64,000 bases of DNA from Prorocentrum cordatum. Its lineage: Eukaryota. Shown piece by piece: positions 41,907 through 64,000 of the stretch; position 1 is the first letter of the stretch; each line of letters opens with the position of its first letter. The position numbers and the translations under genes are program-made. The stretch is taken from assembly GCA_963575745.1 (NCBI GenBank), contig CAUYUJ010000002.1, positions 1,550,001 to 1,614,000 of the forward strand, read 5' to 3'. The notes under the pieces were generated by a model, which had not been told where the DNA came from, searched no databases, and saw only the letters and a list, made by a program, of their open reading frames with translations.

Positions 41907-41997
41907 GCCGCGCGGCCGCTCGACAGGACAAGGCCGCTGCCCGCGCCCTGGCCGCGCGCGGGAGCTCCCAGTGCAGGCCCTTCGCTCCTGGCCTAAG

Positions 41998-44845
41998 ATG
42001 GTGGCCAGTCGTCAGCGAGACATTTTCCCTCTCTCCCCGCTCGACGTGCCCGCCAGCTTGCCTGGCGGCTCCCGGGCTATTCAGCGACGGCGTCAGCGGC
42101 TTCAGCACAGCGCTAGGCTCGCCAACCACGCTATCGAGTCCCTCAACTTCATGGCTGGCCGTTCCTACGACGGGCCCGCCCAGCTGGACACGGTCACCCA
42201 GGCCCTCGCGAAGGAGCGCGTGCCGGGCAACTGCGTCGCGCTGGGGCCCAAGCCGCGCGACGTCAGCGCCCACGGGGGCCTCCGCGAGCTCTGTGGGAAT
42301 GCCATTGCATATGGCGACTCCTCCCCGGTCGTGCCCTACAACAAGGACCTCGTGTCCTGGCCCGAGACGGGCGCGGCGCCAGTGCAGCTGTCGGACGCGC
42401 TCGCCCCGGAGCACCACACATGGTTGAGGGATCTATTGGCCAACTCGCGTCGCTGTAACGCTGACGCTGACCGCCTCAGGAAGGAGTTGGGCTTGGTGCG
42501 CCCTTGCTCCGACCCAGCCTTCCGCACCATCTCTAACTACGCTGGCTTCGTCAAGCAGTTGCGCTCCCGTGGCATGGTGCGCTTCGCCCTCGCCACCGGC
42601 CGGCCGCCGTCGCTGGGCATCTTCATGGTAGCCAAGATGAGCGGGGCCCAGCGCATTATCTTCGACACGAGGTGGGCAAACCTGGACTTCACTCCTCCGC
42701 CTCGGACCCAGCTGCCGACGGCGGCCGCGTTCAGCCAGATCGAGTCGGCTGGCTGCGACGTCTGCTACTTCTCCGCCGGGGACATCCAGAACGCGTTCTA
42801 CGCCATCGCCATCCCTGACGAGCTGGGCGACGCTTTCAGGCTGAAAACGGTCCGAGCTGGCGCCGTCGGCTGTCCGGTCGTGGATGGCCGCCCAACCCGC
42901 CCGGGGGACCTGTTGACCCCGCACCTCGCCGTGCTCCCCATGGGCTGGAGCTGGGCGCTGCACCTCTGCCAGCTCGTGGTTGAGGAGGGCGCCCGACGAG
43001 GGGGCCTGCCCGCCGATCGGCTGCTCAGCGATCGCGCGGCCGCGGCGCCGCTGGCCCCTGCTGTCCTGCAGGGGGCTGTCTACGTCGACAACTTTCTGGT
43101 GCTCGGCGGGCCCCGCCAAGCCGTCGCCTCCACTGGGCAGCTGGTGGCGAGTGCCTTCTCCGGCTTCGGCTTCGTGGTGCACGAGGAGACTGGCGCGTCG
43201 TCGAAGGTGAACTTCGTTGGGCTCGAGCTTGACGGTGTCGACTATACGTCGCGGGTCTCGCGGAAGCGAGCGTGGCGCCTGAGGGTAGCTCTGGCCGAGC
43301 GGCTCTCCCAGGGGCGCTGCAGCGGCGACGTCATGGAGATCCTGGTCGGCCACCTGACGTGGGTCATGCTGCTCCAGCGGTCCGCGCTCTCCGTCCTGTC
43401 CAGCGTGTACGCTTTCGCGCAGGCTGGCAAAGGGCGCGTGCTGGACCTGTGGCCGTCGGTTCGCCAGGAGTTGACGACGGCCATGGGCCTGCTCCCGCTG
43501 CTCGTCGTCCACGCCGACGCCGTCTGGCACAGCGTCGTCGCGGCCAGCGACGCCTCCCACTGGGGCTGCGGGGTGCGCCGCCGGCACTGCCAGGCTTCAG
43601 AGGCCGCTTCCTTTGGCCGGGTGGCGGAGCGCTGGCGCTACCGCGCTGCCGGGGCGGCCAACGCGCGCGCCCACGCCTTCCTCGCCGAGGGCGAGGCCCC
43701 GGACGTCGGCGCTGGCGCGGGCACCGAGTCCGACTCGGCGCTCCAGGACGAGCAGCTAGGCTTCACCGCCGGACTGCTGCAGGCGCACGCGGACGCGTGC
43801 TCGTTCGACCCGGTCGACGCCGGCTTCATGCACCCCAGCCGGTGGCAGGTGGTCCAGAGCTTCAAATGGGGGGCCGACGCAAACATCCTCCGCCTCGAGG
43901 GCTTGGCCCTGTCTTCGGCTCTTCGTCACCTGCTCCGGAGCCGCTCGGCTTTCGGGCGACGGCTGCTCGTCTTCGTCGGCAACCTCGGGCTGGCTCTCGC
44001 AGTGGGAAAAGGGCGGTCTAGGGCTTTTCAGATTCGAGACGTCCTCCGAGAAGTCTGCGCCCTGTCGTTGGCCTGCGGGGTCAGGCTGTCTGTCCGATGG
44101 GTTCCGTCCGAGCGCAATCCCTCGGACCACCCCTCCCGAGGTCGTCTCTTCATCAAGCAGGCGCGCGACCCGGGCGCCTTGGCTGCTGCTCCTGGTGCTG
44201 TGGCTGCTGATGGCGACGCCGAGCCTCTGCCAGCCGTCCCGCCATTCCCGAGCCTCAACAAGGACGGCCCCATACACGACGCGGACCCTGCAGCCAGAGG
44301 CCCACGCGTGGCAGGCGGGGCAGACTGCGATTCCCAGCGGGGCCCAGACGGCAGCGCGCCAGCGCTGCCTGCCGCTGCCCCGTCGCCTTTCGCCCTCCCG
44401 ACCCTGCAGCAGCTGACCTACCTGGAGGGGCGGTCGGTGAAGCCCGCGACGTACAAGGACTACCGCCGCCGAGCCCTGGCCTTCGTCCAGTGGGCCACGG
44501 CGGCCCGCCAGGGTTGGGAGAACTACGAGCAGCTGGACCTCTGCCTGGTGCTGTTCCTGGACAAGCTGTTCTTCGGGGGCTTCGCGGGCGACGACGCGAG
44601 CAAGCTGGTCGCAGCGGTGAAGTTCTTTTACCCAGACCTGGGCCGCTGGGGCGCCGGGGCGCTCCCGCGCACATCGCGGGCCCTGGCGGGATGGGGCAAG
44701 GTCGTGCCGCGCCGGTCGCGGATGCCGCTGCCCTGGGTCCTGCTGGCTGCGATCATCGGCGTCTTGCTGCGCCGGGGCCTCGTGGGGCATGCTGTGGCGC
44801 TCCTGGTCTCGTTCGCGGCCTACCTTCGGCCAGGCGAATGCGACT
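41998..44845 (+). CDS. Pol: reverse transcriptase + RNase H + N-terminal half of tyrosine recombinase in one frame
   Basis: RT motifs: QRIIFDTR, AGDIQNAFY (D 42781), VLPMGWSWALHLCQ, YVDN (43081-43092). RNase H motifs: SDAS (D 43549), LE (43897), VGNL (expected D is G at 43978), WVPSERNPSDHPSR. YR motifs: SVKPATYKDY, FAAYLRPGE (R 44827). Confidence 0.92.
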
Positions 44846-45401
44846 CGACTCACGTCGCTCCAGTTGGTCGCCCCCGTCGCGGCGGCCGGAGGGGCCGCGG
44901 ACGTCTGGGGCCTGCTGCTGGCGCCAGTGGAGCTGGGCAACCCCAGCAAGACCAACAGCTGGGACGACGCGGTCCTCCTGGACTCGATCCCGTACGTGTA
45001 CCCCTGCCTCCTGGTCTTGAAGCGCCGGTGCCGGTCGCCGACGGACCGCATCTGGAGCTACCCGCCCGGGGACCTCTCGATCAGCGGCGGCGGAGCTCCA
45101 GCTGACGCACCTGTGGATCACCCTCTACGGGCTTCGCCACGGGGGAGTGTCCCACGACATCCTCCACCGGCTGCGGACCCCGTTGGAGGCGAAGCTCAGG
45201 ATGCGCGTGGCGTCAGACTCGACCCTGAAACGGTACGCCAAGCAGACGAGGGTGGTTTCGGAGCTGGGCAGGGCGCCGCCGCTGGCGGTGACCTTCGGCA
45301 ACCGCGTCTCGCCCCTGCTCGCCGCCGTGTTCGCCGGCACGGCCTCGGTGCCGAGCCCGCCCGGGCTGCCGGGCAACCAGGGTGCTCTGAGGGCCGGCTG
45401 A
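44846..45401 (+). pseudogene. Tyrosine recombinase catalytic C-terminal part, split by two frameshifts
   Basis: After a shift near 44845: LLLAPVELGNPSKTNSWDDAVLLD (K 44948). After a shift near 45075: TLYGLRHGGVSHD (R 45135) and SDSTLKRYAK (Y 45234). Confidence 0.85.
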
Positions 45402-45424
45402 GCGACCGCCAGGTTGTCACCCGA

Positions 45425-46231
45425 ATGCGTTCTTTGCTCAGGGCAGCGCTGTCGGCTGCCAGTCGCAACAAACGACAGATTGTTCTGGAACTCTTTGCAG
45501 GCTCCGAGGGGCTCAGCCGAGGGGTGAAAAATCTGGGGTATGGAGTGATCGTTGCTGACATCGTTTCTCGTCCTTGGTTCGATCTGGATCGGCCTGTGAT
45601 CCAACGCACCCTTCTCGGCTGGGTCTCCTCAGGGCTCGTGCTGGCCGCATGGCTGGGCACCCCATGTAATACGTGGTCTCAGGCGCGCCACGGCCCCCCA
45701 GAGTCAAGCTGGTGTAGACTTCGTGCACCCAGTGCGATCTGGGGGCTTCCAGGCCTTCAGGGCCGAGCCCTAACCGCGGCTCGACACGGCAACAGTCTGT
45801 TGATTTTCTCTCTGAAGATCATTCGAACCTGTCTGCGTCTTGGGACCCCCGCTTTCCTCGAGAACCCTGCCTCCTCCTTCTTGTGGTCGGTGCCCCCTCT
45901 CTTGAAACTCGCCTCTCACCCCAGCTCTCAAAGCCTTGTTTTTGATTTCTGCGGGTTCGGGACCCGATGGAGGAAACGCACTCGAGTCCAGGCGTGGTGC
46001 AGCGGATTCAGAATCCGCCTGCCCCAGTTGTGTAATTTGCGTGGGGGAATCTGCGCCCACACGCACAAGCGTCACATTGTCCTCACAGGTCGCGACCCCG
46101 CTTCTGGAAAGCTCTGGACCCAGGTCGCGCAAAGTTACCCCAGGAGGATGGCCAACTGTTTCGCTTCTGCAATCATGCGCACCGTCCAGAGCCTGCACCT
46201 GGCCCGAGTGCAACACATGATATCCTTTTAA
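45425..46231 (+). CDS. C5 cytosine DNA methyltransferase-like domain of the YR retrotransposon
   Basis: Motif I VLELFAG (45482-45502), motif IV WLGTPC (C 45665), motif VI FLENP (45860-45868), motif VIII-like DFCGFGTRWRKRT, and C-terminal AQSYP. The frame is uninterrupted. Confidence 0.85.
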   Translation: MRSLLRAALSAASRNKRQIVLELFAGSEGLSRGVKNLGYGVIVADIVSRPWFDLDRPVIQRTLLGWVSSGLVLAAWLGTPCNTWSQARHGPPESSWCRLRAPSAIWGLPGLQGRALTAARHGNSLLIFSLKIIRTCLRLGTPAFLENPASSFLWSVPPLLKLASHPSSQSLVFDFCGFGTRWRKRTRVQAWCSGFRIRLPQLCNLRGGICAHTHKRHIVLTGRDPASGKLWTQVAQSYPRRMANCFASAIMRTVQSLHLARVQHMISF

Positions 46232-46291
46232 TCGTTTTTGACGGCCTTCTGCCAGTAACCATCTTGGGACTTGGGGTCCCTCTCCCCTCCT

Positions 46292-46757
46292 CTCCTGGTC
46301 GGTGGTGGTGGTGTGTCCTCCTTCCCGCTCCCTCTCCTCCTCCACTGCCCGCACTCTTTGGCACGAGTCGGTCCGTGTTCAGTGATCTCTCGCCTGGCCT
46401 GCGAACACAAAAACGTTCTCTGGCACGGGTGGCGCTCGGGATGGGTGTTCTTGAACTTTAATCCTGGAGCAGAATGAGCGCCGCTGGACAACGACGTCCA
46501 TCTCGGAGCCGCTTGATAATTTTATCTGTGTGTTCCCACGTCCATCTGATAACTTTATCTGCCATCCGCAGCCTTTTCTCTCGCCCGCCCTCCCTCCCCT
46601 TTCTCCTCCTGGTCGGTGGTGGTGGTGCGTCCTCCTTCCCGCTCCCTCTCCTCCTCCACTGCCCGCACTCTTTGGCACGAGTCGGTCCGTGTTCAGTGAT
46701 CTCTCGCCTGGCCTGTGAACACAAAAACGTTCTCTGGCACGGGCGGCGCTCGGGATG
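46292..46757 (+). repeat. 3' repeat block B1-A2-B2
   Basis: B1 46292-46443 and B2 46606-46757 (CTCCTGGTCGGTGGTGG...GGCGCTCGGGATG) are offset by 314 bp and nearly identical. Confidence 0.95.
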
Positions 46758-47100
46758 ATGATGATGATGATGATGGTGAAGACGATGATGCTGATGGTGA
46801 TGGTGGCGATGCTTATGGTGATGATTGTGATGATGGTGACGGTGATGGTGATTATGATGCGGCTGACGCTGGTGATGATGATGATGGTGATGATGATGAT
46901 GGTGATAGTGGTGGTGATGATGATTATGATGATCATGGTGATGATGATGATGATGATTGGGACGTTGATGGTTTTGGTGATGATGGTGATGGTGATGCTG
47001 AGTGTGATGATGATTGTGATGACTATGGTGATGGTGATGATGGTAATGAGGAGTAGCATGAGGTTGAAGGTGGTGATGTGGGTGATGATGCTGGTGATGA

Positions 47101-47132
<32 letters not shown>

Positions 47133-47329
47133 TCGGCGGTAACGGTGATGCTGATGGTGATGATGGTCTTGATGATCACCATCATCATCATGATTATGAG
47201 CATGATGGTGAAGATGGTGATGCTGATAGTGATGATGGTGATGATGATGATGACGATGATGGTGATGATGCTAAGGATAATGTGGATGGTGATGGTGCTT
47301 ATGCTGATGCTGATGATGCTGCTGCTGCC

Positions 47330-47372
<43 letters not shown>

Positions 47373-47530
47373 GTCGTGTTGCTTATTATGATCATGAGGA
47401 GGAGGAGGAGGAGGAGGAGGAGGAGGAGAAAGAGGAGGAGAATGAGGAGGAGGAGGGTGAGGAGGAGAAGGAGGTGAGAATGATGGCGGTGATCATGATG
47501 CTGACCCGGAGGAGGAGTAGGAGGAGGAGG
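46755..47530. repeat. (GAT/GGT)n then (GAG)n microsatellite, right flank of the YR retroelement
   Basis: Direct reading of the sequence. Confidence 0.95.
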
Positions 47531-48081
47531 AGCAGGAAGGTGAAGGCCGTCATATGTGACACCCGTCGTCTTCTCTATTTGAGGAACTCTCATGGAATTC
47601 GTTTGGGCCGTTTTGGGGGCTGTCTCGGCATCCTGCAAGGCTGTCTTGCGGGTCCCTTTGGGCCCTCCTACGCCGTCCACGGGTCTCTTGGCCGAATGGC
47701 GGGTGCCTGGGGGCCATCGTGGGGCCGTCTTCGCGCATCGGAATGACATTCTACGACCGTGTTGGTCCCACGGGAGTCCTTTTTGGGCTGTCTTGGATGC
47801 CTCTTGGGCCACCGTGGAACCTCTTAGGCCATCTTGGGGCCCTCTTGGGGGCCTATTGGGCAGTCTTGGGGCCATCGTGGGGGCTTTTTGGGCTGTCTTG
47901 AGATTTCGGAAGTCCGAACAGGCGAGAATGCGAAAGTCAGTCAGAAACCCAAGGGGAAATGAATGAGTTTGGCTTCTTCGGACCCTGTTGGAGGTCCTCT
48001 TGTCGCCCGTTTGGGCCCTCTTGGAAGCACCTTTGATTCTAAAGTGAGCTGGGATACAGGCGAGAGGTAACGAGCGTGTGC

Positions 48082-48102
48082 CCGCGGCCGTTTGGGCTCA
48101 AG
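48082..48102 (+). other. Relict dinoflagellate spliced-leader-like sequence
   Basis: CCGCGGCCGTTTGGGCTCAAG versus DinoSL core CCGTAGCCATTTTGGCTCAAG: 17/21 identical with no gaps. Confidence 0.55.
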
Positions 48103-48639
48103 CGGTCGGCCGCCCAAATCTGACTACACCTCAGTGCGAGGCGTACCATTCGCCATCGAGACCGAAAATATCCTTCGCTTGAGATGGCCCGTCGCTCCCG
48201 CGACGACCTCCTACTGGGACTATCGTTTTTCAAACTTGGTAGCGGAGCTGGCCTATGGTGGTCAGCTCCTGCCCTACTCCTCACCATCCACGGCACTATC
48301 TGGTGGACTACTGACGTGGTGGAACATCAGGGTGCAGTGGGTTTGCGCGGAGGAATGTATATAACTACGCAACATAGCAAGGGCACTTGCAGTGATACCT
48401 CTGCCTACGCAGAAACCTCTTACTCGCGTCCTTCATCCGTGCGCTACTACACTCCTGAAGTCCACCCACCTACTCCAATTGGAAACTTCTTCGAAGACAT
48501 AATGCATGGAAGCGCGCGATGCGACATTGCGACCACATGCCGCAAACCCCAACCATCCGCATCCGACTACGACCTGCGAGGCCATTGGATTGGTATTACT
48601 ATCTATGGGTTCACATGGGTTGCTATCGGGCGCGCGGTG

Positions 48640-49945
48640 GCGCATATGCGTGGCGGAGACGGCACAAGAACGACCGGCCCCCATTGGGACCCGCCCGGTC
48701 AAGTATTTTTCCGCGAATTCGCTCGCGAGGCGCATGCCTGGATCAACGTGACCACAGGCAACATGACGGCCTCCGAACAAACTGCAGCCTTGCAGCGAGG
48801 ATTGTGGGGCCTCGCACGGACCATAGCCATGAGAGTTCCCCCAGCAGTTATCAATTTCGGCGTTAACATTGGTGGCCGCCATACCGATGGCGCCACCTAC
48901 ATCACGTTCCTCTCAAGTACGAAGTTCGAGAACCTAGAAGAGGAACGCCAACTCAACTCTGGTACAGCTCTCATTGTCTTCCGCGTCCATGCGGGAGAAC
49001 GGATCGACCAGACTCTGGCACGCTGCGAGATAGCCCGCTATGATGTTAACACGGCAGGCTTTAACATCCCCAACTTCCGAATTCGATCAGTTATTTCCCT
49101 TGGAGTGGGGACGTCGCGTGCGCAACAGATCCTGCAACCACTAAACCACCACATGCCGAGGGACTTGCAACAGTTTGACTCTCTATTTGAACGCGTAAGG
49201 TCATATGCTCACATTTTTGAGAAAAACCATGGCAATATTGGTGGTATCTTCAGTCGCGGTCACCGAACCGAGACCTTTCACGTTGACGCGAAAGCAGGGC
49301 AACCTGCTAATAACGTCCGGAATGACGATCCGCAACCAATGGAGAACACCACACTACTGACTCAGAATGGTGGTTCGGCCTCGGGGTCGCAAGATTCGAA
49401 GATTCCTGGGCCAGGTTTCGGGGGCCGCCCGATGCGGTGGCCCCTACGCACGCCGCGACCCTAATGGGCTCAGCGGGGCAGCCTGCTGAGTCCGACTTCG
49501 ACTCTGGGACCGACGCCGACGCGTCCTCGGACGACGAGGCTACCGCCCTAGACTTACTCCGACATGCCCGCGTACCTCACGGAAGAACAACAGGCGCAAT
49601 GGTTATTCCTAGGATACCAGAAACATAAACGCAGGTGGAGGCGATTTATGAAGAAGCCAGTTCGCAAGGCACGGCGCACTATCCGCCGGGCACTCAGAGG
49701 AAAGGGCAAGGGTCGAGGTAAGGGCAAAGGTAAATGGCGCCGACTGCATGGCAGAGGCATGTTAGCATGTCTAGTATCCTTTACCGGGCCACATCATGAA
49801 GATATGTTCCTAGGTGCAAGCAGTAACCGTAGGCATACATCAGGAGAAAGGTGAGGGGCGTCGGGGCAACCCGAAGGTTGCGAACGGTCAGACGACGGAG
49901 TGCGATTATCTGCCATAGCACTCGACACTTCCGCCGCGAATGCTC
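48640..49945 (+). pseudogene. Gag-like region ending in a CCHC zinc knuckle
   Basis: PHWDPPGQVFFREFAREAHAWINVT...QTAALQRGLWGLARTIA helical segment and a basic KGKGRGKGKG tract. C-D-I-C-H-S-T-R-H-F-R-R-E-C (Cx2Cx4Hx4C) appears at 49901-49943 once one extra base at ~49907 is removed. Confidence 0.7.
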
Positions 49946-52682
49946 TCAGGGCGACGGGGGAGGCAGAGGTCCGTCGATGCGTCTGGCTCAAACTGACTCG
50001 GACATACAGTATGTTGACTGGGGGTCACTGTTGGCCGACCCTGCCGACAGCTCAGTTGCAGTTGTTAACTTCATGGTTTCCAGATACTTGAATGCCACTA
50101 TGTCCCTCGAGAATTATGCCGACGGGTTGTTCGAGGATATATTCACTGGCCACAGTGAGATCGATCTGGCAGACTGGCTGGGAATGCCCATCGCGGGGCG
50201 ACCTGCCGACATGGAATACGTCGACAACTTCCACAGGGAGATGACGCAATGGCGGTGGAACCCGCGGAATCAGAAGCCGTCATTCCTGCGACAGAGGAGG
50301 AAATACAATTGATGCTTCATCACCAGGTTATTGGTAACCCGACAAACATGGAATTGAATGATGATGACCCTTTGCGGGGAAAGCCGCGAGATGCTGGCGA
50401 TCTGTCTGAACGCATCCAGTTCGAGCTCGGCCACAACGAAGACTTTCAATATGCATTCGTAGCTTCGGACCGCCCCATGAGCCGCCAGGAGCGATCGGCA
50501 AGCCGCCCGACCTGGAGACGTAGGTATCGCGCTGACGACGATGACGAAGAATTGGATGATGACGCACGTCTGGTACGTCGCGGTCGGGTCCGCAGTGGCT
50601 CGCCCGACCGTGCGCGCGCGCTCCAGCGGCGCTCGATCTAGCGGCCTTCAGCGCCCTCGCCCTCCTGATGCGAGGGGGCCAAGGACCCCTCCAAGGAAGG
50701 GCAATAAGCCTGACGCTCCTCCGAGGAGGGAGCGCTTGCGGGGGCGCCCGCTTCGAGGGGGGGGGCTTCGCGAAGAATATCCAGAAGGCGAAATGCAGCG
50801 CCTAGTTGGCTGCTCGGATGCTGGATTGGTTCGTCAGCACATAGACCCAGATGCAATGCGGCACTGGTTGAACAAGGGTTGGGCGGTTGAGCACCGGATT
50901 CGCCACTGGGATTCTCTTCGCAATGTTGATCGAAATGAACAAGACAAGGTCATTCGCTCAAAAAGGACAGGGGCTGTCAATGCACAAAAAGCCCTTATGC
51001 AGCGCGACCTCGAGAGGGCCATCATCGAGGATTGGGAACTTTACAGCGGCGTTGTTTGCACATGCTTCGAGCATGCCGACCACGGGCTCGGCTGCCCCAT
51101 GAGACGCCCATCAGGGGGCCCCGACTTCCGCAAGACACCGTGGGTCTGGTCTCGCGGTGATGGCCAGGGATACTGCGTCGATCCGAATATAGCACCATGC
51201 AACGAGCAGTTGGCGGAAGACGACTACGAACAAGCTACAGCCCAAGAAATGTCCCAATCTATCGAGATTTGGAAAATCGTCCACCTGTTCGGTTTTTATA
51301 TACAAATCCAACCGCGATTACAATGCGGGGAAAACCGCTTCGCCCACGCCAGAAGAATACGACCAGCAAGAAGATGAAGCTGAATACATGGGCGAAGCGG
51401 TAGACCCCGCGGCAGCCGTTCCTGGAGGGCACGCCTCGGATTACTGCGACGCCCTCTCCACTGTCACGGACGTCACTTACGAAACGGACGCCCCCATTGA
51501 CCCAGTGGACATCGCCACGAAAGACATGGATCTCCCCCCAGGAAGAAGAGTCGTCTACCGTGCTGGATCTGTAGGCTGGGCAAAGACCACTATTAAAGGA
51601 AGGCTGAGCGCTGACAAATGACCTGACCGTTAGGGGCAAGGCTACCATCGGGAATCTGGCACTCAGAAAGCCCGATGGGGAGGGCCTCAACCCTGGCAGA
51701 GGGCCCGCGCGCTATGGGCCATGGGTACCCGCAGGGGCAACGCCAAATGTACCTCCTCCCAAGCCGAAGACAGGTCCACCTACTGATATATCTCCATCTT
51801 CGGATTCATCGAGTCAGTCTCAGCCACTCGGACCTGATCAGCTTGCTCCAACGCCTAAACAGAAGAAGAGGAAAAGCCCAGATGACCCCAATCTTGGAGA
51901 TCGCAAGCAACAGCGACCTGCGGGGCAACCTGCTGATCGACGTCGATCCAGAGGACCAGCAGTGGCTGCCGCAGCAGCTGCATTTCAAGGCGCCAGCACT
52001 CCTACTCCGCAGGGCCCTGTACCACGTCGCGGCCGCGCACCTGGCCGGGCACACAGGACTGGCTGGACGCCGACGCTGGAGGGATCATCGAGGGATGCTT
52101 CTTCATCGCGGCATGGTGCCAAGCAGAGGCGATTGGAAACTACGTCGAAGGCATCAGGGGCAGCTCCCAAAGATTAGAAGTGCGAGTACTACAACATCAG
52201 CGAGAAGAAACGTCCGGATTTCGACATCAGTACCCCTCCAAGGACCCCTTGGACGCTAAGAGGATCCACAGGCGCCGCCCCGCCATCGGCAGGCGCCCGC
52301 GCACCTGCAGCATCGGCAACAGCAAAGTCTGCAGGACGGACTGATGAGCAAGATCAGAGCTCCGCGGGGGCAACCTGCTCTTACTCTAGAAATGCCCGTT
52401 GAATGCCGACAGTCTTGGGAATGTATGCGCACCGCCAGGCGAACGAAGATCAACCCAGCATATCACCCCCGTATTGATGGTGGGTCTGATCGATGCATCG
52501 CGGCGGAGTGCGACATCATAGGCGCGGCCGTCATTGCCGATCAGGACGCTCATGCGCGCCAGGTTGCACGCAATATCCTGCGTGGGCGCTCGGCGATCAC
52601 GTATCTGTCCGAGAAGAACGACTTGATGGGGATCCTTAAGGCAGACAGAGCTGTTGGTCCAGATTTGACCGTTGAGGAGCAG

Positions 52683-53403
52683 CGCTGCTGCTCAGAATGT
52701 CTTATTACTGCTACTCGTCACAATTCATTTCACACCAACTACCTCTCTGATAGGTCTCTGAGAGCAGTACCGTCTTTCGTCGAATTCGATGGATGGGTGG
52801 AGCTCTCGGAGCTGCTTGACAAGTGGCCACCTGAGGGATGTGATCGTTACCGCACCAAACACCTGGAGACTGTCTGGCGTTGTCTCAGCACCCTCCATTC
52901 GGCATATCAAGCACTAGCTGTGCTGAACTTGATCGGCATGGTCGACAATGCTGGTGTGCCTCAGATGAAGAAGTGCAAGTTCGCTACCGAGATGTAAGAG
53001 ACATACTTCATACGCCCATGTAATGGACACAGCAGTCCTGATATATAATGCCCTGAATCATTGTACATGATGATAAGGGGTTTGACCATTCCAGGTGCAC
53101 CTTGTAATTTCGTTCGTGGTACCCAATGGGAACATACCCCGAATATATTTCGCGTAGGACTGTCATGCCGTGCCGGCGACACCATCAAGAGAAAAAGGCA
53201 GACAGTTTGTTCATGCTTGCCCATATTTACCTAGTGACAACAGAATCCAGTCCGGCTAGCGCGTCGACTCCGACGTATTATGTATGGTTAGTCTGAAGAA
53301 CTTGTTTCGTGATAATGTGGCTATTTGGCGCTCAGCAAATAATATTATAATGTCGGCAGGCCGGAACGGCAGAATTCTTCCGACCCACACCGTCCAGATC
53401 ATA
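52683..53403 (+). pseudogene. Tpt1/KptA-like NAD-dependent RNA 2'-phosphotransferase (ADP-ribosyltransferase fold) domain within the retroelement
   Basis: Manual translation gives SECLITATRH (RH 52716-52721), DGWVELSELL (52788), IRPCNGHS (53010-53033) and FVRGTQWEHTPNIFRVGL (53109-53162). After a +1 shift in the A-run at 53192-53196 it continues GRQFVH, IQSG*RVDSDVLCMVSL, IWRSANNIIMSAGRNGRILP. All family motifs are present in order. Confidence 0.8.
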
Positions 53404-55711
53404 GGCATTCTTTCCCAACGAGAAGCGCAGGTATAATCGCGTGGGACATGTATGAATCAATCCTTTATACTTGGGGCAACGCGCAGAAATATACGAACAG
53501 TGATTTTACCCTCGACGAGTTGTGCGAATTTCAAAATGGCGCATCATCGTCGAAGGATTGGTTTATTCCAAAAGCCATACAATTTGGAGTGCCCCGAACC
53601 GACGCCTATCCAGGAGGTCGAGTTCTCTACGGTATCTATGATGAAAGAAGGGTACCAAGCGGAGACACTTGCAGGGGGATCCGACGGATCATGGATTCAG
53701 GCCCAGAGCGCGGACGTGACTGGTATGACATCGAGTGGGATTACTCCCAACGACATGCTGTACGCCAGCGATCCGTGGCGTGCCCAGACGCAGCACCTGC
53801 CAGTACCTGCAGGGCAACCTGCGCCGTTTGAACTTATGAGTAGGGCCACAACTCCCTTTGGGACTCCACAGAGTGCTGGGAGCACCAACAGCCTACAGGC
53901 GAGGCTCCAGAGCATTCGGATGGACCTACAGCTCTACCAGGCTTTGCAGGCGACGTCGCCGTTCGCATCGCCGCGTCCACGCGCGGGGCAACCTGATTTC
54001 CCTGACCACAGCGCTGCACAGAGGACCGAGAGTTTGGCTGGTCAGCAAGAGTGGATGCACCGGCACATGCGCGAAGCCGCACAGAGCATGCGCAGGGGCG
54101 GCATCGACCTCCCCAGCGCTAGCTGGACGCCACCTTGGGAGTATGTCCCGGACCCAAATCCATCGCCGGACAACGCCAATAGGTACTGATACGTGCCAGC
54201 ATTTTTCAGTCATCCGACATGCGATCCGACAGCTGCAGGGCGCCCTACAGCACCACCGATGGACTTCCCATTGTACCCCTACTAGCATGCTCAGGTGACG
54301 GGCAACCCTCGCGCGGGAACGCAGCCGGAGAACCCGCGTGTACGAGCGACAGCCGACGACTTCTATCAGTCTCACTTGGCACGCGGCTGTAGTTACACGT
54401 CAGGTGGGTGGGCCAGATCCCTCATTATGGATATTTGCTTACCCCCATGGTCTCAGATGTGACTGAACAGGCCCCTAGCCTGGTAGCGCCATCGCCCATG
54501 GGGGAGTTGCGACAGATTCTGGCCACTCACGAGGCGCAGCAGGCCAACCTCTCAATGCAATTGGCCCGCCAGCGTCGCAATCATGAGCGCCAAGCAAACA
54601 GGATGCTGGGTCGTGCGGGGCAACCTGCTACTCCAATCATAGCAGGGACACCTGCATTCAACCTGGCAGCACTTGCAGCCATGAAGCCACCGTCGGTTCC
54701 ACCGATCCAGTGAGGTTGGCGAAACCACTCTGGAGCGCCAGGCGCGTATCAGGCCATCGGCAACACCGCTGGTCATCAGCGACGGTGACTTTACAAGTGT
54801 GTCATATGCCTGGACCACTTCATGCATCACGACGGTCTGGGGGCTTCAGTGTGGTCACAGTGATGGGACCGAGTGGCGCACGCTCATGTGGACAGGCAGT
54901 TGGCTGGTACTCTGGAAGGTGCTGCAACTGAGGCGTCCTGCGCAATTTGCAGGGTCGCTGGTCCAATCGCAGCTGAGTTTCATTATGGCCTTGCTGGAGA
55001 TCAAGATGCAGCAAAACGTCATGGAGAAATAGTCCGGGGGGCTAGCGAACTCAGGGACCTTCGCGGAGAGCTCAACCGCAGCACGGCGATCATCAGCCAA
55101 CGCGGTGCATGCGACGGCAGCTACCACGCCTGCTATGGATACGCCTATGCCATTGATCGCAGAAACAGCCAACAGCGCAGGGACACCTGCTACGACTGCA
55201 CCTGCCGCGTTGCCGGCCAACCATACCTGGCTGAGGCGTGCGGAGAGAGCCACAGAGAGGAGCGCGCAGTGGCTTCAAGCTCCACGTACCTACATGCCAT
55301 ATGGGAGAGACATCCGCCCGCGCAGCCAGCGCAGGACGGAGGGCTCGGCGAGCGTACGCAGCGGCATCAGTGCGATATCCGAGCGCGACATGTTACACAC
55401 TGTGTTGATGGTGCACACAGATGGCCAGATAGGCATGCGCGCTGACGAGGATGCGTTCATGAACGTGCCGCTCGCATCTGCACCGCACCCGCACATGCAT
55501 GACGAGTGTCCTACGGCTTGGATGTTCGAGAAGAGCCCCACTACGGAGGAGGAGGCCCGCGGATACATGAACGTCTTCACGTCTCTGACCCCTGAACGAC
55601 TGGGTGGCGGAGCAGAGGCGCCGCAAGGGTATGCATGGTACGACGCTGTCTGAAGTGCCAGGAATATTCGGATAATGCCATGAATGGGCCCTAGCCGCGA
55701 ACAGTGGGACC

Positions 55712-56200
55712 ATGGCGCAAGGAACGTTGACGATCCTTCTGGACATCAGCAGCAACATCAACATCATTGGTCTGAAAACGGCACAGACGTTTGAACGCGC
55801 ATCCCGCTCCCATGGACACGATATCAGGAAGCTGAACCTGACGAAGAGGCTCTACGTGTCTGGAGTTGGACACGATGCCGCTGCATGCGGCAAGTCCTTG
55901 CACTGCAGAATTGCTTGCAAAGAAAAAAGGAGATCCGGCGGGGGGGCCTGCTGTGCCGAGATGTGATACCTACTCAGCCAACGTGTCTGAGGGTTCAGGG
56001 GAAAATGTCTTTGCTATCCTGGGTCTGAGGAGTATGTTTACCATGGGGGCTATCCTGATCTTGGAGCAGGGGGCACGAGAAGATGGTCATCCCTGGCTCA
56101 TATGTACAAGCTCTTCCTTGGTAAGGTTGCCAGAGTACTTGATTTGATGAAAGCGCTCTCAGGGCACCTGGCGCTCAAGGTCGACGAGTGCGGGACCACA
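55712..56200 (+). pseudogene. Retropepsin-like aspartic protease, frameshifted
   Basis: ILLDISSNINIIG (D 55742, degenerate D-x-G) and flap-like VSGVG. After a shift in the A-run at ~55920: AILGLRSM...AILIL, then SGHLALKVDE. Confidence 0.65.
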
Positions 56201-56914
56201 ACTGAGGACAAAAGGTCGATGTCGTTTGTTTTCACGGCCAACCCTCACTGCGAGGATGCCCCGCTGCTCGTCAAAGAAGCAGCTGACACAGAGCCAGTCG
56301 CGGGGCAACCTGCTTCGAGTAGTGCGGTGACACCTGCTATGAGCGATGCCCGTTCGTACATGCCGTCTCAGGATACCAAGGGCATCAGCTTCTCCATCAA
56401 CGAATTTCGCGATCCAGTCTTTGGTGAATAACACCTTGAAGACCTGGCATGACAGGAACGCGACCTTCGGGTGCATACCCGCACCGGCCGACCAGGACTT
56501 CGCCTTGCGGAACTTGCAGGCGAAGGTCTATCAGGCCATCTACGAGGAGGGCAATAAGTGGATACCGCCCGACGCGAACGCAGGGGCATCTGCGGGTGGA
56601 ATGGATGCCGCTGAGAAGTTTGATATCTTTACTTCCAGCAGCGGTTCAGCAGCGCAGCATGGCACGGGCATTTGGACGCCCCCATCGCTTGAAAATGAGT
56701 AACGGGGGCAGGCGCGCGCCGCGGCCGCCCGCGCCTGCTCCGACTGGCCGAACACTTTGGCGCTGTCATCTAGCGCGGGTAAACTTGCATTATTTTCTCA
56801 GGCGCCGGCTGCGCGCGCCAGGGACATTTGCAAGCCCGGCTGCGCGGCTGCCAAGGACAGCAGTGGGCCCGGCTGCGTGGCCGCTGCAGCACATGAACGC
56901 TCATCGCATTATTA

Positions 56915-57520
56915 TCACTCTCGTGCACTTGTCGTTGAGGACATGCGGACAGCTTGCGCTGAACTCCGAGCTCGTGGTTACATGTGTGACCGCATCGCAC
57001 ATACAGAGATTATGACATCTACTGGTACACAGTTTTTGGGTGCTCTACTCTCGGGGGGTTATCAATTGCCATGGGTGGCAACGCCCGCTGACTGGCACGT
57101 TCGGCTGCCTGGGAAGCGGGCAGGGCCGCATGGCCAACGCATCCGAAATCTGATGACTCAGGCTCGGGCTCTACGTATGTCTACTGTACTTGTGACCACC
57201 AGGTTATTTCTGGAAACAGGGTCCCATACGAGATGTCATTGAATATCTCGACTTGCAGGTCATGCGTATGCGATGCTGCCATCTCGGTCTGGAATGCGAC
57301 CATTCCAGTAAATTGCCTAGCGGATCATATCTGCAAGTGGCAACTACCTTCACGCGCATCCCAACCAACTTGTGGAGATGTACGTGTCAAACCGCAGGGG
57401 AACCTGCTCGACTTGCTGAGCATGAACTTGACTGGCATAGCCCAGGCGCCCAGAAGGCAGAATGGCGCAACAACACATTGGCTATCATGACCGCGAGATT
57501 GATTGATCAAATGGAGTTAT
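56915..57520 (+). pseudogene. Possible second, highly diverged DNMT-like domain
   Basis: ALVVED...ELRARGY, QLPWVATP, MRCCHLGL and WRCTC...H parallel the motif order of the DNMT at 58237-58860, but the catalytic PC and ENP motifs are missing. Confidence 0.3.
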
Positions 57521-58236
57521 ACAACACAAAGAGAAACCACGCGAGTAGTATACACCGTAGCATTCACACACGAGTGGATAAAGGAGCTCGAACTTACGTC
57601 CAGTCTCCAAAGAATGGCCCTGAATGGGACCATGTCGCACGACCTGTAACGGTGAACCTGGGCGACAATCAGATTATACAAGACCTCAAGATCTAGGAAA
57701 AGCTTATCGGGTGCAATTTCAATGCGCCGTTACCGAATGGCGAAACAAACATTCGTACTCGGTTATACTAGGAACCGCCAGAACTGGTTCTCATCGGACA
57801 AGAGGACCAGCGACCACGCCCAAGGCGAGTTGCGTTCGTCGACGACGATCGCCCCCCTCCCCCTTCGATTGAGCGCGGCCGCGTGCCCCCTTCTATTCCC
57901 GAATTCCCGACGTCAGGTTCACATGGTACTGAACAACAGACAGCACTACCGACAGATGCCCGAATCAAACACAAGGAATATCATAATGCCAACAAAGAGG
58001 CGAGCATCAAGCCACGCAAGATACCGAAGGTAGCCGAAGAAGGCAACGACGACTGCGGGGATGACCTCAAAGGTGCCAGCTATAGTGCGCACTACACCGA
58101 CGTTCCCCTTGACTCCGACACGAAAAGCGTTGATGAGGAGGAAGCCTTCATCCGATTATTTGCGGGGCTACCTGCTGAAGCATACGCAGATGTATTCTCC
58201 ATAATCCCAGCGTTATGCCATGGACGACACAACAAG

Positions 58237-58860
58237 GTTGACATGTTGGAACTGTGTGGAGGAAGTGGAGGTACATCGCAGCTAGCACTCAGCCGGGGTT
58301 TGTCTTCCGAGGGGAACTTTGACAACCGTTCATGCGTTGACCTGGGAAACAAGGAGGTCCAGGATGCAGTGATGCGCTACCTGGACGCGTGCTTCGGCAA
58401 TTGTGTCATGCGGTCACCCAATTGCAGAACGACCCGACTCCCATAGTTCAAATCCCAAGTCAACTATGACGCTTGACATGAACACCACGTAGAAGATCTT
58501 CAACACATCAAGGTCTGTGGAAAAGTTGCCATGCGTCAGAACGACCTTCGACGCTTTCACATACGAGAACAACCAGTGGGTACTTGGGTGGATCAGATAC
58601 CACCATGGACCACATTGGCCATATGCAAGGGCACCTGCCAGGTGCACATGGATTGATGTACTACTGGCTTACGTGATTCCCATGGGGTATTGATACGAAA
58701 ACCGACCGAGATCATGGCCAACCACCGTCTTCTACTGACGCCTTTTGAACGAAAACGATGTGCTGGCCATTATAAAAATGCGTCGGTCTGTAGCAAAGAA
58801 CTGTCCACGGCTGCGCATTCTACTTCAAGGATGCAGTCTCTTTTCGTCGACGCAGTTCAG
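58237..58860 (+). pseudogene. C5 cytosine DNA methyltransferase-like domain with in-frame stops
   Basis: Single frame: VDMLELCGG (motif I, 58237-58263), SPNC (motif IV-like), REQP (motif VI-like, 58564-58575), MD*CTTGLRD and IRKPT (motif VIII-like), RCAGH. Stops at 58444, 58474 and 58654. Confidence 0.7.
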
Positions 58861-59610
58861 ATCGCGCACGACCATTTCCAAGTCAACCGTGATCCCTTTC
58901 ATTGTCACCCATATTCTTCCACCGTGCTAGTCACTCACGTGATGGGATATGATTTGAACGATCCAACTATCCCTTGAAAACCCGACGGGTCGATCACGAG
59001 ACCGCCTTCGGGAGGGTTAGGATGCCTTGCATGCGCGGATAGCGATAACATGCGCTTTCCCTCGCATGACAGAAACCCTGAGCATTGCAGGCGGTATGAT
59101 AAGGAAGACTACCATTGGGAATGTCCGAGCTGCGAGAAGAACTACGGCCATAACAAGCCTGGACATGCACGGATACATGGCAAATGCAAGTTTGCCAAAC
59201 CTTGGAAGGTGTCCGACAATCGCGGACAGGCACCACTGGCTCCTGCCGATCCAGCAGCACCACCGCCCGAGGCACAAGCCGCACCACCACTTGTGCGGCC
59301 ACGAGCACCAAGACCCGGCTCTAGAGCCGGACCCACAGCGGGTGCCAGCAGCCACGACATTACAGTCGCCAGACATGCTGCCGAACCTGCTGCAGGGCAA
59401 CCTGCCTCGAGTGGAGCGGGTAGTTCGGATGGCCACATCCGACTGCCACAGGTCAGAGTCAGATGTTACCGACAGCAAGGAGGATATCCACCTTTACCGC
59501 CACCTGCGGGTAACCCTGCTGGACGCCCGCGACTTCCAGACTGGTCAAGGTTCGGCGTGCAAGTCAGTCTACACAACTTACGATGCCTTGATCCAAGCGT
59601 GGCAACACGC

Positions 59611-60600
59611 GAGCTGCGGAAGCTACTTTTGTGTTGGTCCCATGCGAAAGAGCCTGAGGTGAGACTCATCTTAACCAAGATAGGTCTGGACAGCGTCAGA
59701 CTCAAGCTGATCAGCGGTGTCTGCGACACATGTCGGGAGTGCAGGGCTTGGGACAAGCTTGGGCATGCGGTTATGCCATCTACTGCACTGCCTGGCAAGT
59801 TCCAAGCAGAAGTTGAATGTCACCTCCTGTTCTACGAACAAGAACATAACATACTTCATAGCATCGATCGTTGCATTCGCTATGCTACTGGAATGGAGAT
59901 ACCGAACACGACAATGACCAGTATCCTGGATGCGTACCATCAGTACTGGATGCAGTTTGGACCCGCAAAGGTATTCTACTCCGATGGAGAGGGCACCCTC
60001 AACAACGACACTGCGAATGCAGTCCTTAAGGCAAAGGTCGCTGAATGAAGGATACGTGCGCGTGGACGACACGCTACGACGATCGAAGCCATACATGGCA
60101 TTTTGCGCCATCTACTCCATGTCATGGAAGCAGAACTCGACAGGTTAGATATACGTCAGTGTTCACACGACTACTGCATGAAGCCTTGTTTGCCGCCAAC
60201 GCGCTCACCTTTTTATAATGAGTTGTTTCCATGCAGCGGTCTGTTTCGACGGCGACCGGCATTGCTCCCTGACTTGCTCAGTTCTCCTGGGTCACGAGCA
60301 GCCGACGGAAACGTCGGATCATTCTCGTGAACAGATGATGCGCAAGGTCTGCTTCGAAGCTATCACGCAGGCCACTGCAGTAGCCAAGACCAATCGCGCA
60401 TTACGCACCATCACCAGTCACCACTACTACGATGAAGCAGATTTAGTCGATTACCATCGCCCCACAACCACGAAGGACAACTGGGGCGGCTGGAATGGCC
60501 CATTCCCGGCCGCGCGAAACGATCCCTGCAGGGGTCAAGTCATCATTGGAGCGGGAAGCCGCGACGTTCAGGCACAACGCGGCGATTTACGACATTCGCT
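59611..60600 (+). pseudogene. Retroviral-type integrase (HHCC + DDE core + C-terminal domain), decayed
   Basis: ELRKLLLCWSHA...CDTCREC zinc domain, VECHLLFY (first D now H at 59821), IDRCIRY, FYSDGEG (D 59983), HATTIE (E 60085) and downstream DLVDYHRP...WNGP. Confidence 0.8.
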
Positions 60601-61634
60601 TTATATTGAAGCTTTGATAGCCAGAGAGATTGGCTCCGACTACACTGCACTACGGACAGTGTTGACGTTTGTGGCCAGTTTACCTGCGGGGGGACCTGCC
60701 ATGACATTTGGCTATGTCCCGACCAAGAAGGGAACGCTTCAGATGACAAGTGCAAGCCGACTATCTCCTAAGGTACATCTGGCTTTACAGTACCTCATCA
60801 GAAACTTCTTCCGCGTCGAGAACGTAGTTTTGGTTAGGTTAGCCGAGAATATCCACGAGCAACCTCCGGTGGCTTACGCTGACAGTTGCACATTGGTCCA
60901 CTATGACAACGATGCGAACCCGGGGCTTCACTATGATGGGGCAGAAGGCGCGGCTCTCAACATGCACGATATGAACGGACCAGCACATTCAATAATCATC
61001 CAGTGCCTGAAGTCCACCGAACCTCAAGCGGGCTTCGACCAGGATATGACAAAGTTTGAGGAATTGGTTGATATACCGACACAGGGCGGAAACGCAAGAG
61101 AAGCCCCAGAAGCCGAACCACCGCAGGAGGATGGGCGGCTTCCCACGATACATGAGGAATCGGAGGCTGACTTCGAGGCACATATTATAAAAGTGTGGTA
61201 CACAGAACTACAAGATGAAAGGGAGCTACTGGAGGCAACTCCACTAGAGGACCTTTTCACCGTACCCGCGCAGATGATTCCAGACGACAGTGCGCTGATC
61301 ATTGTTGCTGAAGAAGAACAGCGGGGACACCTGCCTAAGTGGGGGCACCCGCGCGACTCCGACACCGAGGAGGCGCATCATGCCCCATTGTGCTCCACGG
61401 TCGAAGACTGCAGTTTTGGACTGGGCTCGGACGAAAACGGACAATATGTAGAATTCTGTTTTGCGGCAGAAGTGTCAAAGCTAGTTAGTCCTACCCGAAC
61501 AGCAGCACAGGTTATTCCCCACATGCTTCGTGGGTTTCTGGTTTTCTGCCTTGCCTTGCCGCGCCCGCGACGCTCGCACCTCGCACCTCCCTCTCCGTCT
61601 CCTTCTCACACACCTCACTCGACCCCTCCTCCTC

Positions 61635-62215
61635 GCAGCACTGCTCAGCACAGCTCAGCTCAGCTCAGCTCAGCTCGGCGCGGCACGGCACAGCTGAGCA
61701 CAGCTCAGCTCAGCCCAACTCAGCACAGCACAGCACAGCACAGCACGGCAGAGCACGGCACAGCACAGCTCACCGCACAGCAGCACAGCACAGCACAGCA
61801 CAGCATAGCACACAGGGCATTCCTTCGACGCCACAGGGGGTGCGCTGGGGGTGGGGGCCCTATGCGTTGTAGGCTCCCAGGGCGCGGGAGGCGCGGCATT
61901 TCCTCGACGCCACAGGGGGTGCGCTGGGGGTGGGGGCCACGTGCGCTGTACGCTCCCAGGGCGTGGGGGGCGTGGCATGTCCTCGACGCCATAGGGGGTG
62001 CGCTGGGGGCGGGGGCCCTCGCTGTAGGCTCCCAGGGCGTGGCAGGCGTGGCGTCTTCTTGACGCCATAGGGGGTGCGCACGGGGTGGTCCCTGAGCGCG
62101 GCCGCTATCCGTGACGGTCGCCCAGGGCGCAGCAGGCGCGGCGTCTTCTCGACACCGCAGGGGGTGCGCACGGGGTGGTCCTTGAGCGCGGCCGCTATCC
62201 GCGACGGTCGTCCTT
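61635..62215. repeat. (CAGCA/CAGCT)n pentamer tract followed by CCTCGACGCCACAGGGGGTGCGC ~80-bp tandem units
   Basis: Pentamers at 61635-61815; five related units at 61820-62215. Confidence 0.85.
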
Positions 62216-62849
62216 GCGGTATCGGCGGGGCAACGGCCACCAACATCTTTCTCCCATGCTTCACTTCAGCTATCTTTACCCCAGCCATGCTATAAGTATG
62301 TGGGGCTCCTCGGTAGCGTAATTCGATGCCGACCGTGTTGCCGCCACGCGAGTATATATTGCCGTTGCTGTAAAGCGAGCTGCGGTCGTCAAGGAAGACG
62401 ACCTCTTCGCCGAGGCTGGGATCCAAGCGAGCCCCGAAAGGGCATCGAACACCCCATACACTGAAATGCTTTACGCTTCGCGTATCCCCGCCAGCCCATC
62501 TTAAAAAGAGCAACTCTTGCGAAGCATGCCGACAGTCGTGTTTTTCAGGCGTGTTTCCGCCTGCCCCCGCATATCTCCCCTGTTCCTCCTTCCTCCCGCC
62601 TCCTTGTACATCCTCTTTGTGGTGGGAGCTTCCCGCGAGCACAGCGTGGGCGAGCACCTCGCGTCCACCTGCGACAGTCCTGGCTAGACCTCCGCGCTGC
62701 CTGAGGCGGCGGAGGAAAACTGGGCCTCGACGCCGCTTCCAGCGGCGGAGGAAGAAGCTCTGGCAGCAATCCCCATCGACTCAAGGAACTCCAATTCCTC
62801 GGTCCTCGACAGCGCGACCACCTCTCCAGGCAGTCTTTCATTCTTATAA

Positions 62850-63795: not shown

Positions 63796-64000
63796 TCAGC
63801 CCAGGGACCCCGACCCCCGACCCATCCGAGTAGGCCAGGCCCGAGAGAAGGGGATCGTCCCCGTACTCGGGGTCCAGCGTCTCAATGCTGGGCGTGACGT
63901 CCTGGAAGGGGTCCCCCAGTGGGTGAGGCGTGAGAGCCCTGGAGAAGAGGTGCGAGGAGGAGCTCGAGGAGGAGGCACGGTGGATTATATCTGGATAAGA

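Follow-up and report, generated by a model that had tools for sequence, protein, structure and literature searches.

Why would a mobile element carry a Tpt1/KptA-type domain, that is, an NAD+-dependent RNA 2'-phosphotransferase, between its gag-like and protease-like parts? The question is raised by positions 52683-53403 of a 64,000-nucleotide (nt) stretch of the Prorocentrum cordatum contig CAUYUJ010000002.1 (hereafter the window; G+C 0.60, N count 0), where a first-pass annotation had proposed such a domain inside a retrotransposon. Our analysis indicates that Tpt1 is probably a module that is fixed and selected in a multi-copy retrotransposon family with Ty1/copia order, where it forms part of the first reading frame, and its placement suggests a role on the nucleic acids of the element. 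The copy in the window is a broken one, and the case is carried by its relatives.

The window copy can be read on the plus strand through two frames, A (52620-53192) and B (53194-53433), which together span the RNA lobe and the NAD+ lobe of the domain. The motifs seen are SECLITATRH (at 52692), DGWVELSELL, IRPCNGHS, VRGTQW (where HGT reads RGT), GRQFVH, SG*RVDSDVL and WRSANNIIMSAG. Frame A is interrupted by TAA at 52995 and 53046 and frame B by TAG at 53257, and the frame moves by one at an A-run with one extra A (53192-53196). These stops, the A-run and the motifs had all been given by the first-pass annotation and agree on re-reading, so that its call of a pseudogene stands. We also used run X1, a DNA sequencing run available as contigs (0.17 of sampled words), with contigs placed on positions 44,001-64,000 at a likeness of at least 80%. 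Seven X1 contigs lack one base at 53191 and 13 lack one at 53192, and the extra A is therefore a defect specific to the window copy. The Pfam family PF01885 (PTS_2-RNA; profile length 177, curated cut-off 26 bits) matches frame A at profile positions 56-123 (17.9 bits, E 0.0035) and, collinearly, frame B at positions 124-177 (26.1 bits, E 1e-5); such weak scores are as expected for a decayed copy. A phmmer search of PDB with the broken piece stayed at chance level (CpxA 0.035, 7yw3 0.067), and a word-based protein search with it, among longer proteins, gave no match. One detail of the earlier reading, a conserved arginine replaced by lysine in KKCKF, does not hold. The yeast-type KQRF aligns with KNRL of the element family, so the apparent K for R is a small deletion, a four-residue gap that removes KNRL from GMQKNRLQxKK, and no catalytic arginine is lost. 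Judged by its motifs and profile matches, 52683-53403 is a broken remnant of a Tpt1/KptA-type domain.

An exhaustive phmmer search with frame A returned 65 cluster representatives at E<=1e-3 (36 at <=1e-10 and two at <=1e-30), which are short predicted proteins of 63-277 residues. Twelve of these fragments were scanned with Pfam, and PF01885 was found at E<=0.1 in ten, with P0035 and P0066 giving no match; five exceeded the family cut-off (51.4, 47.7, 42.2, 40.0 and 28.3 bits). Their alignment conserves xLRHxPFH, DGWVE, GMQKNRLQxKK and IRAxNGHSxPGxKCPESLY, followed by HGTxW, GRQFxHGCPYLPGDxRIQSGLRxDSEV and WRSANDIxxTSGxxGRIP. Metagenome contigs scanned with a tighter alignment (A2) yielded three loci. 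L001 is an 8,780-bp contig with an unbroken frame at 820-8778 (2,653 codons, running off the contig end), L002 is a frameshifted copy, and L003 is open at both ends across 495 codons. PF01885 matches amino acids (aa) 1387-1620 of L001 at 61.8 bits (E 1.1e-16) over profile positions 5-177 of 177, covering both lobes, and L003 at 62.1 bits. The Tpt1/KptA identity first proposed from motifs is thus backed by significant profile matches in the window and in intact relatives where the domain lies in frame.

The L003 domain has two PDB matches only by phmmer at E<=0.01, 7yw3 (1.7e-12) and 7yw2 (6.5e-10), and a profile of the element Tpt1 family finds 7yw3, 7yw2 and 7yw4 and no other solved structure. 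Because these matches are limited to eukaryotic Tpt1 entries, they point to a eukaryote-type domain, and the sequences hint at a eukaryotic source. The likeness to eukaryotic Tpt1/TRPT1 (7yw3, 7yw2, 7yw4; PF01885) extends over both lobes, with RH, IRAxNGHS, HGT, GRxxxH, LPGD..SGxR and RSAN..LT aligned. In contrast to these stand-alone enzymes, the element domain is part of a polyprotein that exceeds 2,653 residues, in which it takes up aa 1387-1620. Its RNA lobe is expanded by ~60 residues and its GHS is followed by an inserted PGxKCPESLY, both peculiar to this family, and its best PDB match covers the NAD+ lobe only.

Does the domain belong to the element, or did it arrive in one copy by chance? 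A host Tpt1 retrocopy or a nested insertion in a single element copy would suit a window copy that is a pseudogene in a window without reverse transcriptase. The L001 frame, however, aligns with the window by tblastn collinearly from 48229 to 56167 (aa 63-2653), switching frame repeatedly in the window, at identities of 35-53% (53% for aa 63-628 and 50% for aa 639-736). Around Tpt1, which stands at the same place in L001 and L003, the identity to the window is only ~36%. Across the domain the alignment runs from 52347 to 53216 (E 2.6e-41) and then, in another frame, from 53131 to 54387 (E 1.8e-82). All 65 fragments align to the L001 frame; 12 start 20-112 residues before the domain, and two extend past it, by 30 and by 146 residues (the latter in P0048), into element-specific sequence. 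Since the flanks of the fragments lie in element-specific sequence, Tpt1 belongs to the element as a constant component and did not arrive by nested insertion. X1 contigs also cover the region continuously. A one-off event, refuted by the position in L001 and L003 and by the fragment flanks, is therefore extremely improbable and could be revived only if L001 and L003 were both assembly chimeras.

The Tpt1 domain is under purifying selection in the intact relatives. We compared L001 and L003 by the Nei-Gojobori method and obtained nonsynonymous (dN) and synonymous (dS) distances of 0.107 and 0.917 over the 234 codons of the domain (dN/dS 0.116), and of 0.231 and 0.345 over 220 codons of the linker that precedes it (dN/dS 0.67). 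The catalytic tetrad of CthTpt1 is Arg-His-Arg-Arg, i.e., R18, H19, R68 and R121 (PMC6333775). Counts at the corresponding columns were made over the 65 fragments plus L001 and L003, using only sequences with a residue at the given column. The arginine and the histidine of the RH motif are kept in 21/21 and 20/21 sequences, the arginine of IRAxNGH in 33/36 and that of GRQ in 15/18, a retention of 83-100%. The window copy itself has R, H, R and R at the four columns. Neither of the two outcomes that the first-pass annotation had named as refuting its proposal was obtained, since profile matches are significant and related copies have the domain. The histidine of HGT is more variable (His in 20 of 29 sequences, Arg in seven and another residue in two), and the earlier reading of HGT as RGT in the window copy is correct. 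It could be argued from this variation, and from the long insertions peculiar to this family, which lie in the RNA lobe and behind GHS, that the module is kept for something other than catalysis, e.g., as an RNA- or NAD/ADP-ribose-binding part of the particle without phosphate transfer, and selection alone does not separate binding from catalysis. The preserved tetrad columns speak against such a module, as do SGxR and RSAN in the NAD+ lobe, which align with the mammalian and yeast enzymes, and we consider it distinctly unlikely. On these sequence grounds, Tpt1 is very probably an integral, selected and catalytically competent module of the element.

Which proteins surround the domain? Frame 1 comprises a gag-like part with a CCHC knuckle, Tpt1, a RING finger and a protease-like end, all on the plus strand. 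The gag-like part (48229-50207, from tblastn with L001) includes a decayed knuckle, CHSTRHFRREC, at 49911-49943, whose counterpart in L001 (aa 636-652) is an exact CX2CX4HX4C (CDICGSTQHFRREC). A long, basic, low-complexity linker without recognised domain follows at 50264-52682 (tblastn aa 760-1059 and 1270 onward), and its last ~110 residues are conserved among relatives. Downstream of Tpt1 lies a conserved region to which no function is assigned (53404-54797, with GSDGSWI at 53677; aa 1544-1987 of L001 correspond to 53131-54387). It is succeeded by the remnant of a RING-H2 finger (CVICLDHF ... CAICRVAG; 54798-54962), collinear by tblastn with L001, where the finger at aa 2130-2183 scores above the cut-offs of both zf-RING_11 (33.8 bits) and zf-RING_2 (29.5 bits). 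The end of frame 1 (55598-56188; tblastn aa 2440-2653 of L001) is aspartic-protease-like, with ILLDISSNINIIG at 55733 recognised by eye; its counterpart near the C-terminal end of L001, ILMDIGSNVNIVG, is retropepsin-like by eye, and the motif taken for the protease call is MDIGSNVNIVG. The proposal that Tpt1 lies between gag and protease is upheld, since the knuckle at 49911-49943 and the protease-like part at 55733-56188 flank the domain, both assigned by motif. As a side observation, Tpt1 is not the only unusual accessory domain of this polyprotein; the RING-H2 finger, which follows it and precedes the protease-like part, is another.

The class of the element has to be read from its second frame and from relatives of that frame. 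Frame 2 comprises an N-terminal part, a methyltransferase-like domain, zinc fingers, integrase, reverse transcriptase and an RNase H-like end. In the window its N-terminal part, with no function assigned, occupies 56925-58185 (P0079, P0083, P0086 and P0087 begin at 56925-57212), a Cys/His zinc-finger cluster (GLGCLAC ... CPSCEK) with Cys/His columns invariant in alignment A4 lies at 59002-59150, and the integrase lies at 59599-61486, all on the plus strand; the co-orientation of Tpt1 and integrase described earlier is accordingly correct. The integrase has a CDTCREC finger, a D-D-E core (59860, 59977 and 60073) and a C-terminal part, and is matched by tblastn with 15 of 17 long relatives; Pfam rve appears in one of 15 relatives at 24.5 bits, below its cut-off. 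Pfam searches of 26 single open reading frames and six read-through frames (46-64 kb) found Tpt1 and otherwise chance-level rows, and a word-based protein search with the read-through methyltransferase-integrase piece found no match, probably because proline-rich words swamped it. A reverse transcriptase hidden between the protease-like and methyltransferase-like parts was sought by eye and none was seen; relatives place it after the integrase. Neither reverse transcriptase nor RNase H is present in the window copy, and the RNase H-like end of L001 has no match in the window.

These absences, together with the lack of a pair of long terminal repeats (LTRs) and with Tpt1 as the only Pfam family found in the window copy, would also agree with a DNA transposon or an integrated virus that uses a retroviral-type integrase, the reverse transcriptase proteins then belonging to a different element. 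The relatives contradict this. Their single frame runs from the methyltransferase-like part through integrase and RVT_2 to the RNase H-like end (e.g., P0083 of 1,954 aa, whose aa 36-1346 correspond to 57169-61486 by tblastn). RVT_2 (PF07727, cut-off 31.6 bits) was found at E<=0.001 in 11 of the 15 long relatives rescanned, above the cut-off in three (P0070 47.6, P0099 38.0 and P0079 32.2 bits). P0083, P0086 and P0094 gave no match at that threshold, and at E up to 10 weak RVT_2 matches appear in P0083 (18.6 bits) and P0086 (14 bits). Homology to the window ends mid-frame at 61486 in 12 of the 15 (P0079, P0099 and P0101 stop at 61069-61189), and the relatives run on for another 500-660 residues of reverse transcriptase and RNase H-like sequence, the counterpart of which is missing from the window; the window copy is truncated at 61486. 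P0070 bridges the break, with aa 3-50 matching 61343-61486 and RVT_2 following, and it is 97% identical to a peptide encoded upstream of the long frame in L001. That peptide (L001 2-691, same strand) is RNase H-like and closes a frame whose stop lies 126 nt ahead of the long frame, so L001 has an RNase H-like end and gag-Tpt1 on one strand. The upstream peptide has 34 long relatives, 19 of them with precomputed PF07727; Pfam and PDB searches gave no name for the RNase H-like end itself. One long relative is a Polarella glacialis protein with the UniRef name Ty1/copia-type reverse transcriptase domain protein. A viral contig collection yielded no relative. A DNA transposon or virus is consequently very unlikely. 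The element family belongs to dinoflagellate-like marine protists, and the decayed copy of the window is probably from a dinoflagellate-like alga. Because the integrase lies upstream of the reverse transcriptase in the frame of the relatives, the family has the Ty1/copia order of protease, integrase, reverse transcriptase and RNase H, the first two being seen in the window (protease-like part, 55.7 kb; integrase, 59.6-61.5 kb) and the last two in relatives. Of the earlier label of retrotransposon, the mobile element is directly supported and a reverse transcriptase in the window is not, the class resting on the continuation of the relatives' frame into RVT_2.

The X1 contigs delimit the repeat unit and illustrate its abundance. 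In total 21,610 contigs were placed, 1,361 at >=99%, 3,375 at 95-99%, 7,735 at 90-95% and 9,139 below 90%; runs X2 and X3 gave only 15 and 5. Summed contig depth, which does not equal copy number, is 42-51 at 44.0-46.7 kb, 250-19,000 with continuous cover at 47.3-62.7 kb (421 in the Tpt1 bin), and ~190 beyond 62.7 kb. The 5' edge and untranslated leader of the unit are placed at 47832-48228 (plus strand) by the loose ends of 63 contigs before 47832 and by the rise in depth from the 46.7-47.3 kb bin onward, and the leader shares a short stretch, GCC.AATCTGAC, with that of L001 by eye. Short tandem repeats of the GGGCC/TCTTGG type lie just upstream of the edge (47300-48050), with summed depth up to 7,511. 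The truncation and 3' edge (61487-62629, plus strand) contain an (AGCAC)n microsatellite, tandem repeats of ~75-80 bp and the end of the repeat unit; the highest summed depth (up to 19,036) is reached in the microsatellite and tandem repeats at 61630-62230, and loose contig ends occur at 62110 (14 contigs) and 62629 (seven contigs). The unit in the window is ~14.8 kb after the loss of reverse transcriptase and RNase H, and a full copy is thus probably 16-17 kb. In one X1 contig, 62494 is followed, after 31 letters, by 47832; this joint and the 126-nt gap in L001 (within 1-1005) could reflect copies arranged head to tail, a very short or collapsed LTR, or a collapsed assembly.

What could the enzyme do in such an element? 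Tpt1 enzymes move an internal RNA 2'-phosphate to NAD+ (PMC6333775), some remove terminal 2'- or 3'-phosphates (PMC6573784), and some ADP-ribosylate 5'-phosphate ends of RNA or DNA (PMC6182162, PMC12678800, PMC6582358). As the domain is kept under purifying selection between gag and protease, its plausible substrates are the nucleic acids of retrotransposition, which narrows the possibilities to a few that can be assayed in vitro. The position on the Gag side, before the protease, is most simply read as that of a protein which is cut out and present in the particle at Gag-like amounts. In active copies, the protease of the element would cut Tpt1 out of the Gag-side polyprotein inside the particle, where it would use NAD+ on the element's own nucleic acids. 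On the RNA template, it may remove an internal or terminal 2'(3')-phosphate and let DNA synthesis pass; on a cleaved tRNA or tRNA-fragment primer, it may heal the end to a 3'-OH from which DNA synthesis can start; or it may add an ADP-ribose cap to a 5'-phosphate end. The present data do not discriminate among these three options. The roles put forward by the first-pass annotation, capping or protection of ends and processing of a tRNA-fragment primer, are likewise proposals. That Tpt1 acts on the element's own RNA, primer or complementary DNA rather than on host targets is a tentative proposal, to which we give slightly less than an even chance. A stronger version would make Tpt1 an obligatory step of reverse transcription inside the particle, either converting a tRNA fragment with a 2'/3'-phosphate into a 3'-OH primer or erasing template 2'-phosphates left by a host ligase or defence; this we think unlikely. 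If true, Tpt1 would have its first natural substrate outside splicing, and this would be the first retroelement equipped for NAD+-dependent repair of RNA ends.

An active enzyme could instead be directed at the host, erasing 2'-phosphate marks, ADP-ribosylating host RNA or DNA ends or proteins as counter-defence, or altering host tRNA, with the RING finger as a second tool of the same kind. The RING-H2 type is typical of ubiquitin ligases, the finger lies ~500 residues downstream in the same frame, and the ADP-ribosylation of 5'-phosphate ends by Tpt1 enzymes would fit. There is no known host target or defence system, however, and none came up in this analysis; a location between gag and protease would be just as fitting for an enzyme that acts inside the particle. 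We regard a host-directed role as unlikely but, given the RING finger in the same frame, as a serious alternative.

Several points weigh against the interpretation of Tpt1 as a selected, active module of a copia-order retrotransposon that works on the element's own nucleic acids. We take the tetrad columns to be those of RH, IRAxNGH and GRQ, from Pfam and PDB alignments and the position of the tetrad in canonical Tpt1. Some of the seven relatives that share the arginine of the window copy at the HGT histidine may be dead copies. An AlphaFold2 model of the domain from a 21-row alignment (A3) is poor (mean predicted local distance difference test score, pLDDT, 42.3; predicted template modelling score 0.29) and gives no fold-level confirmation of a winged-helix RNA lobe with an ADP-ribosyltransferase-type NAD+ lobe. 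The knuckle of L001 scores 12.1 bits with Pfam zf-CCHC, below the cut-off, so gag is assigned by motif only, and the same applies to the protease call, the protease-like part having no Pfam or PDB sequence match. Comparison of the window with itself found no LTR pair or direct repeat between the two ends of this truncated copy, and the 126 nt between the RNase H-like frame and the long frame of L001 are short for an LTR and represent one junction only. The link between the RNase H-like end and gag-Tpt1 depends on that single contig, which is metagenome-assembled. The long frame-2 relatives are known as proteins alone, and the presence of Tpt1 in their elements is a presumption. Activity, processing and packaging of the domain are all predicted from its sequence and position. 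For the idea that a 2'-phosphate blocks reverse transcriptase, we found no printed support.

How does the family compare with known elements? Retroviruses offer a parallel, some of them having a dUTPase between gag and protease, an accessory enzyme of nucleic-acid hygiene that would be packaged with the particle. The placement on the Gag side is alike; the reaction differs, dUTP hydrolysis there and NAD+-dependent phosphate transfer or ADP-ribosylation here. Among dinoflagellate elements, the Ty1/copia-like SmTCL1-4 of Symbiodinium microadriaticum (PMC5776459) are similar in having integrase before reverse transcriptase, an RNase H-like end and multiple copies. The SmTCLs are described as ~10 kb long, with reverse transcriptase, integrase, RNase H and LTRs (PMC5776459). 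Elements of the present family are larger and add Tpt1, RING and the methyltransferase-like domain; our searches found no LTRs in them. SymbioLINE-DNMT, SymbioDIRS-Dnmt3 and KnitGypsy-Dnmt3 (PMC5890265) resemble it as dinoflagellate retroelements that captured a host nucleic-acid-modifying enzyme. Their DNMTs are recognised by Pfam and their classes are LINE, DIRS (tyrosine recombinase) and Gypsy (PMC5890265), whereas the present element has copia-type order, a DDE integrase and a methyltransferase-like domain without Pfam match. Membership in SymbioLINE-DNMT or SymbioDIRS-Dnmt3 was considered and is ruled out by the different integration enzymes.

We found no paper describing Tpt1/KptA in a retroelement; this search covered main texts and the titles returned by full-text searches, with supplements and Repbase/Dfam outside its scope. 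Tpt1 and phosphotransferase are absent from the main texts of PMC5890265 (where KptA is absent too) and PMC5776459, and Tpt1/KptA terms are absent from the main text of a 2024 review of dinoflagellate genomics. On this reading, the element is a copia-order retrotransposon with a new type of captured enzyme. In organisms without a tRNA ligase that forms 2'-phosphates, the role of Tpt1/KptA has been called "obscure" and a long-standing conundrum (PMC6573784, PMC6333775), and the present family would give this puzzling group of enzymes a new and testable job. For transposon biology, the captured accessory enzyme is of a new kind. It stands next to a RING finger and a methyltransferase-like domain, and the copia-order element that holds all three is unusually large and is abundant in marine metagenomes as well as in one or more sequenced protists.

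The methyltransferase-like domain deserves a more cautious name than the label DNMT given to it earlier. It lies at 58186-58980 (plus strand), with ELCGGSGG at 58249, SPNC at 58411 and REQPVG at 58564, and comparable motifs (ELCGGxG, QPNC and REQP) were recognised by eye in P0084 (aa 25-270), in a comparison with motifs I, IV (Pro-Cys) and VI (ENV) of C5 DNA methyltransferases. No Pfam match, including DNA_methylase (PF00145), was obtained in the window frames or, at E up to 10, in five intact relatives. A model built from six sequences reached a pLDDT of 52.4 (60-80 in the core), and the best Foldseek match of this low-confidence model was ZMET2 (E 0.05), with many DNMT3 entries among the weak rows. 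VIA-align returned Z values of 5.1-6.1, a tie between short-chain dehydrogenases and MET1, DNMT3A/B, DIM2, Dnmt2 and HhaI. The fold of 58186-58980 is predicted to be Rossmann-like, and a methyltransferase identity is plausible; the DNMT label is not confirmed. P0079 and P0087 do not match this stretch of the window, and the domain may be variable within the element family.

A short repeated motif was also observed. Copies of the 14-nt sequence GCRGG-(GCAA/TAAC/TCAC)-CCTGC are spread across the element, and their in-frame reading is A-G-x-P-A in every case. The window has 16 copies at <=1 mismatch, always on the plus strand and within 49294-61334 (shuffle expectation 0.76), and L001 has 17 (599-8507), again all on the plus strand (expectation 0.05). 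The L001 protein contains 14 AGxPA sites (shuffle mean 0.15, maximum two in 2,000 shuffles). The codons are fixed at synonymous positions, with Ala always ending in A/G, Pro always CCT and Gln always CAA, which argues for constraint at the nucleotide level. All eight instances folded form a 5-bp stem and a 4-nt loop (minimum free energy -6.8 to -12.5 kcal/mol). The sites fall in the linkers that separate the domains, and their places correspond between the window element and L001; they may be protease cut sites, RNA hairpins or both. If Tpt1 is an obligatory step of reverse transcription, the ~16 strand-specific hairpins might belong to that process too.

A relic of the dinoflagellate spliced leader, searched for at up to three mismatches, was absent from the window. 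An open frame at 40657-45102 (plus strand; 1,482 codons), which lies immediately before the element, has only a chance-level Pfam match (DNA_pol_viral_C, 17.8 bits). Between this frame and the repeat unit, a long Asp/Glu-rich low-complexity stretch in the plus-strand frames at 46700-47300 has a summed X1 depth of 1.5.

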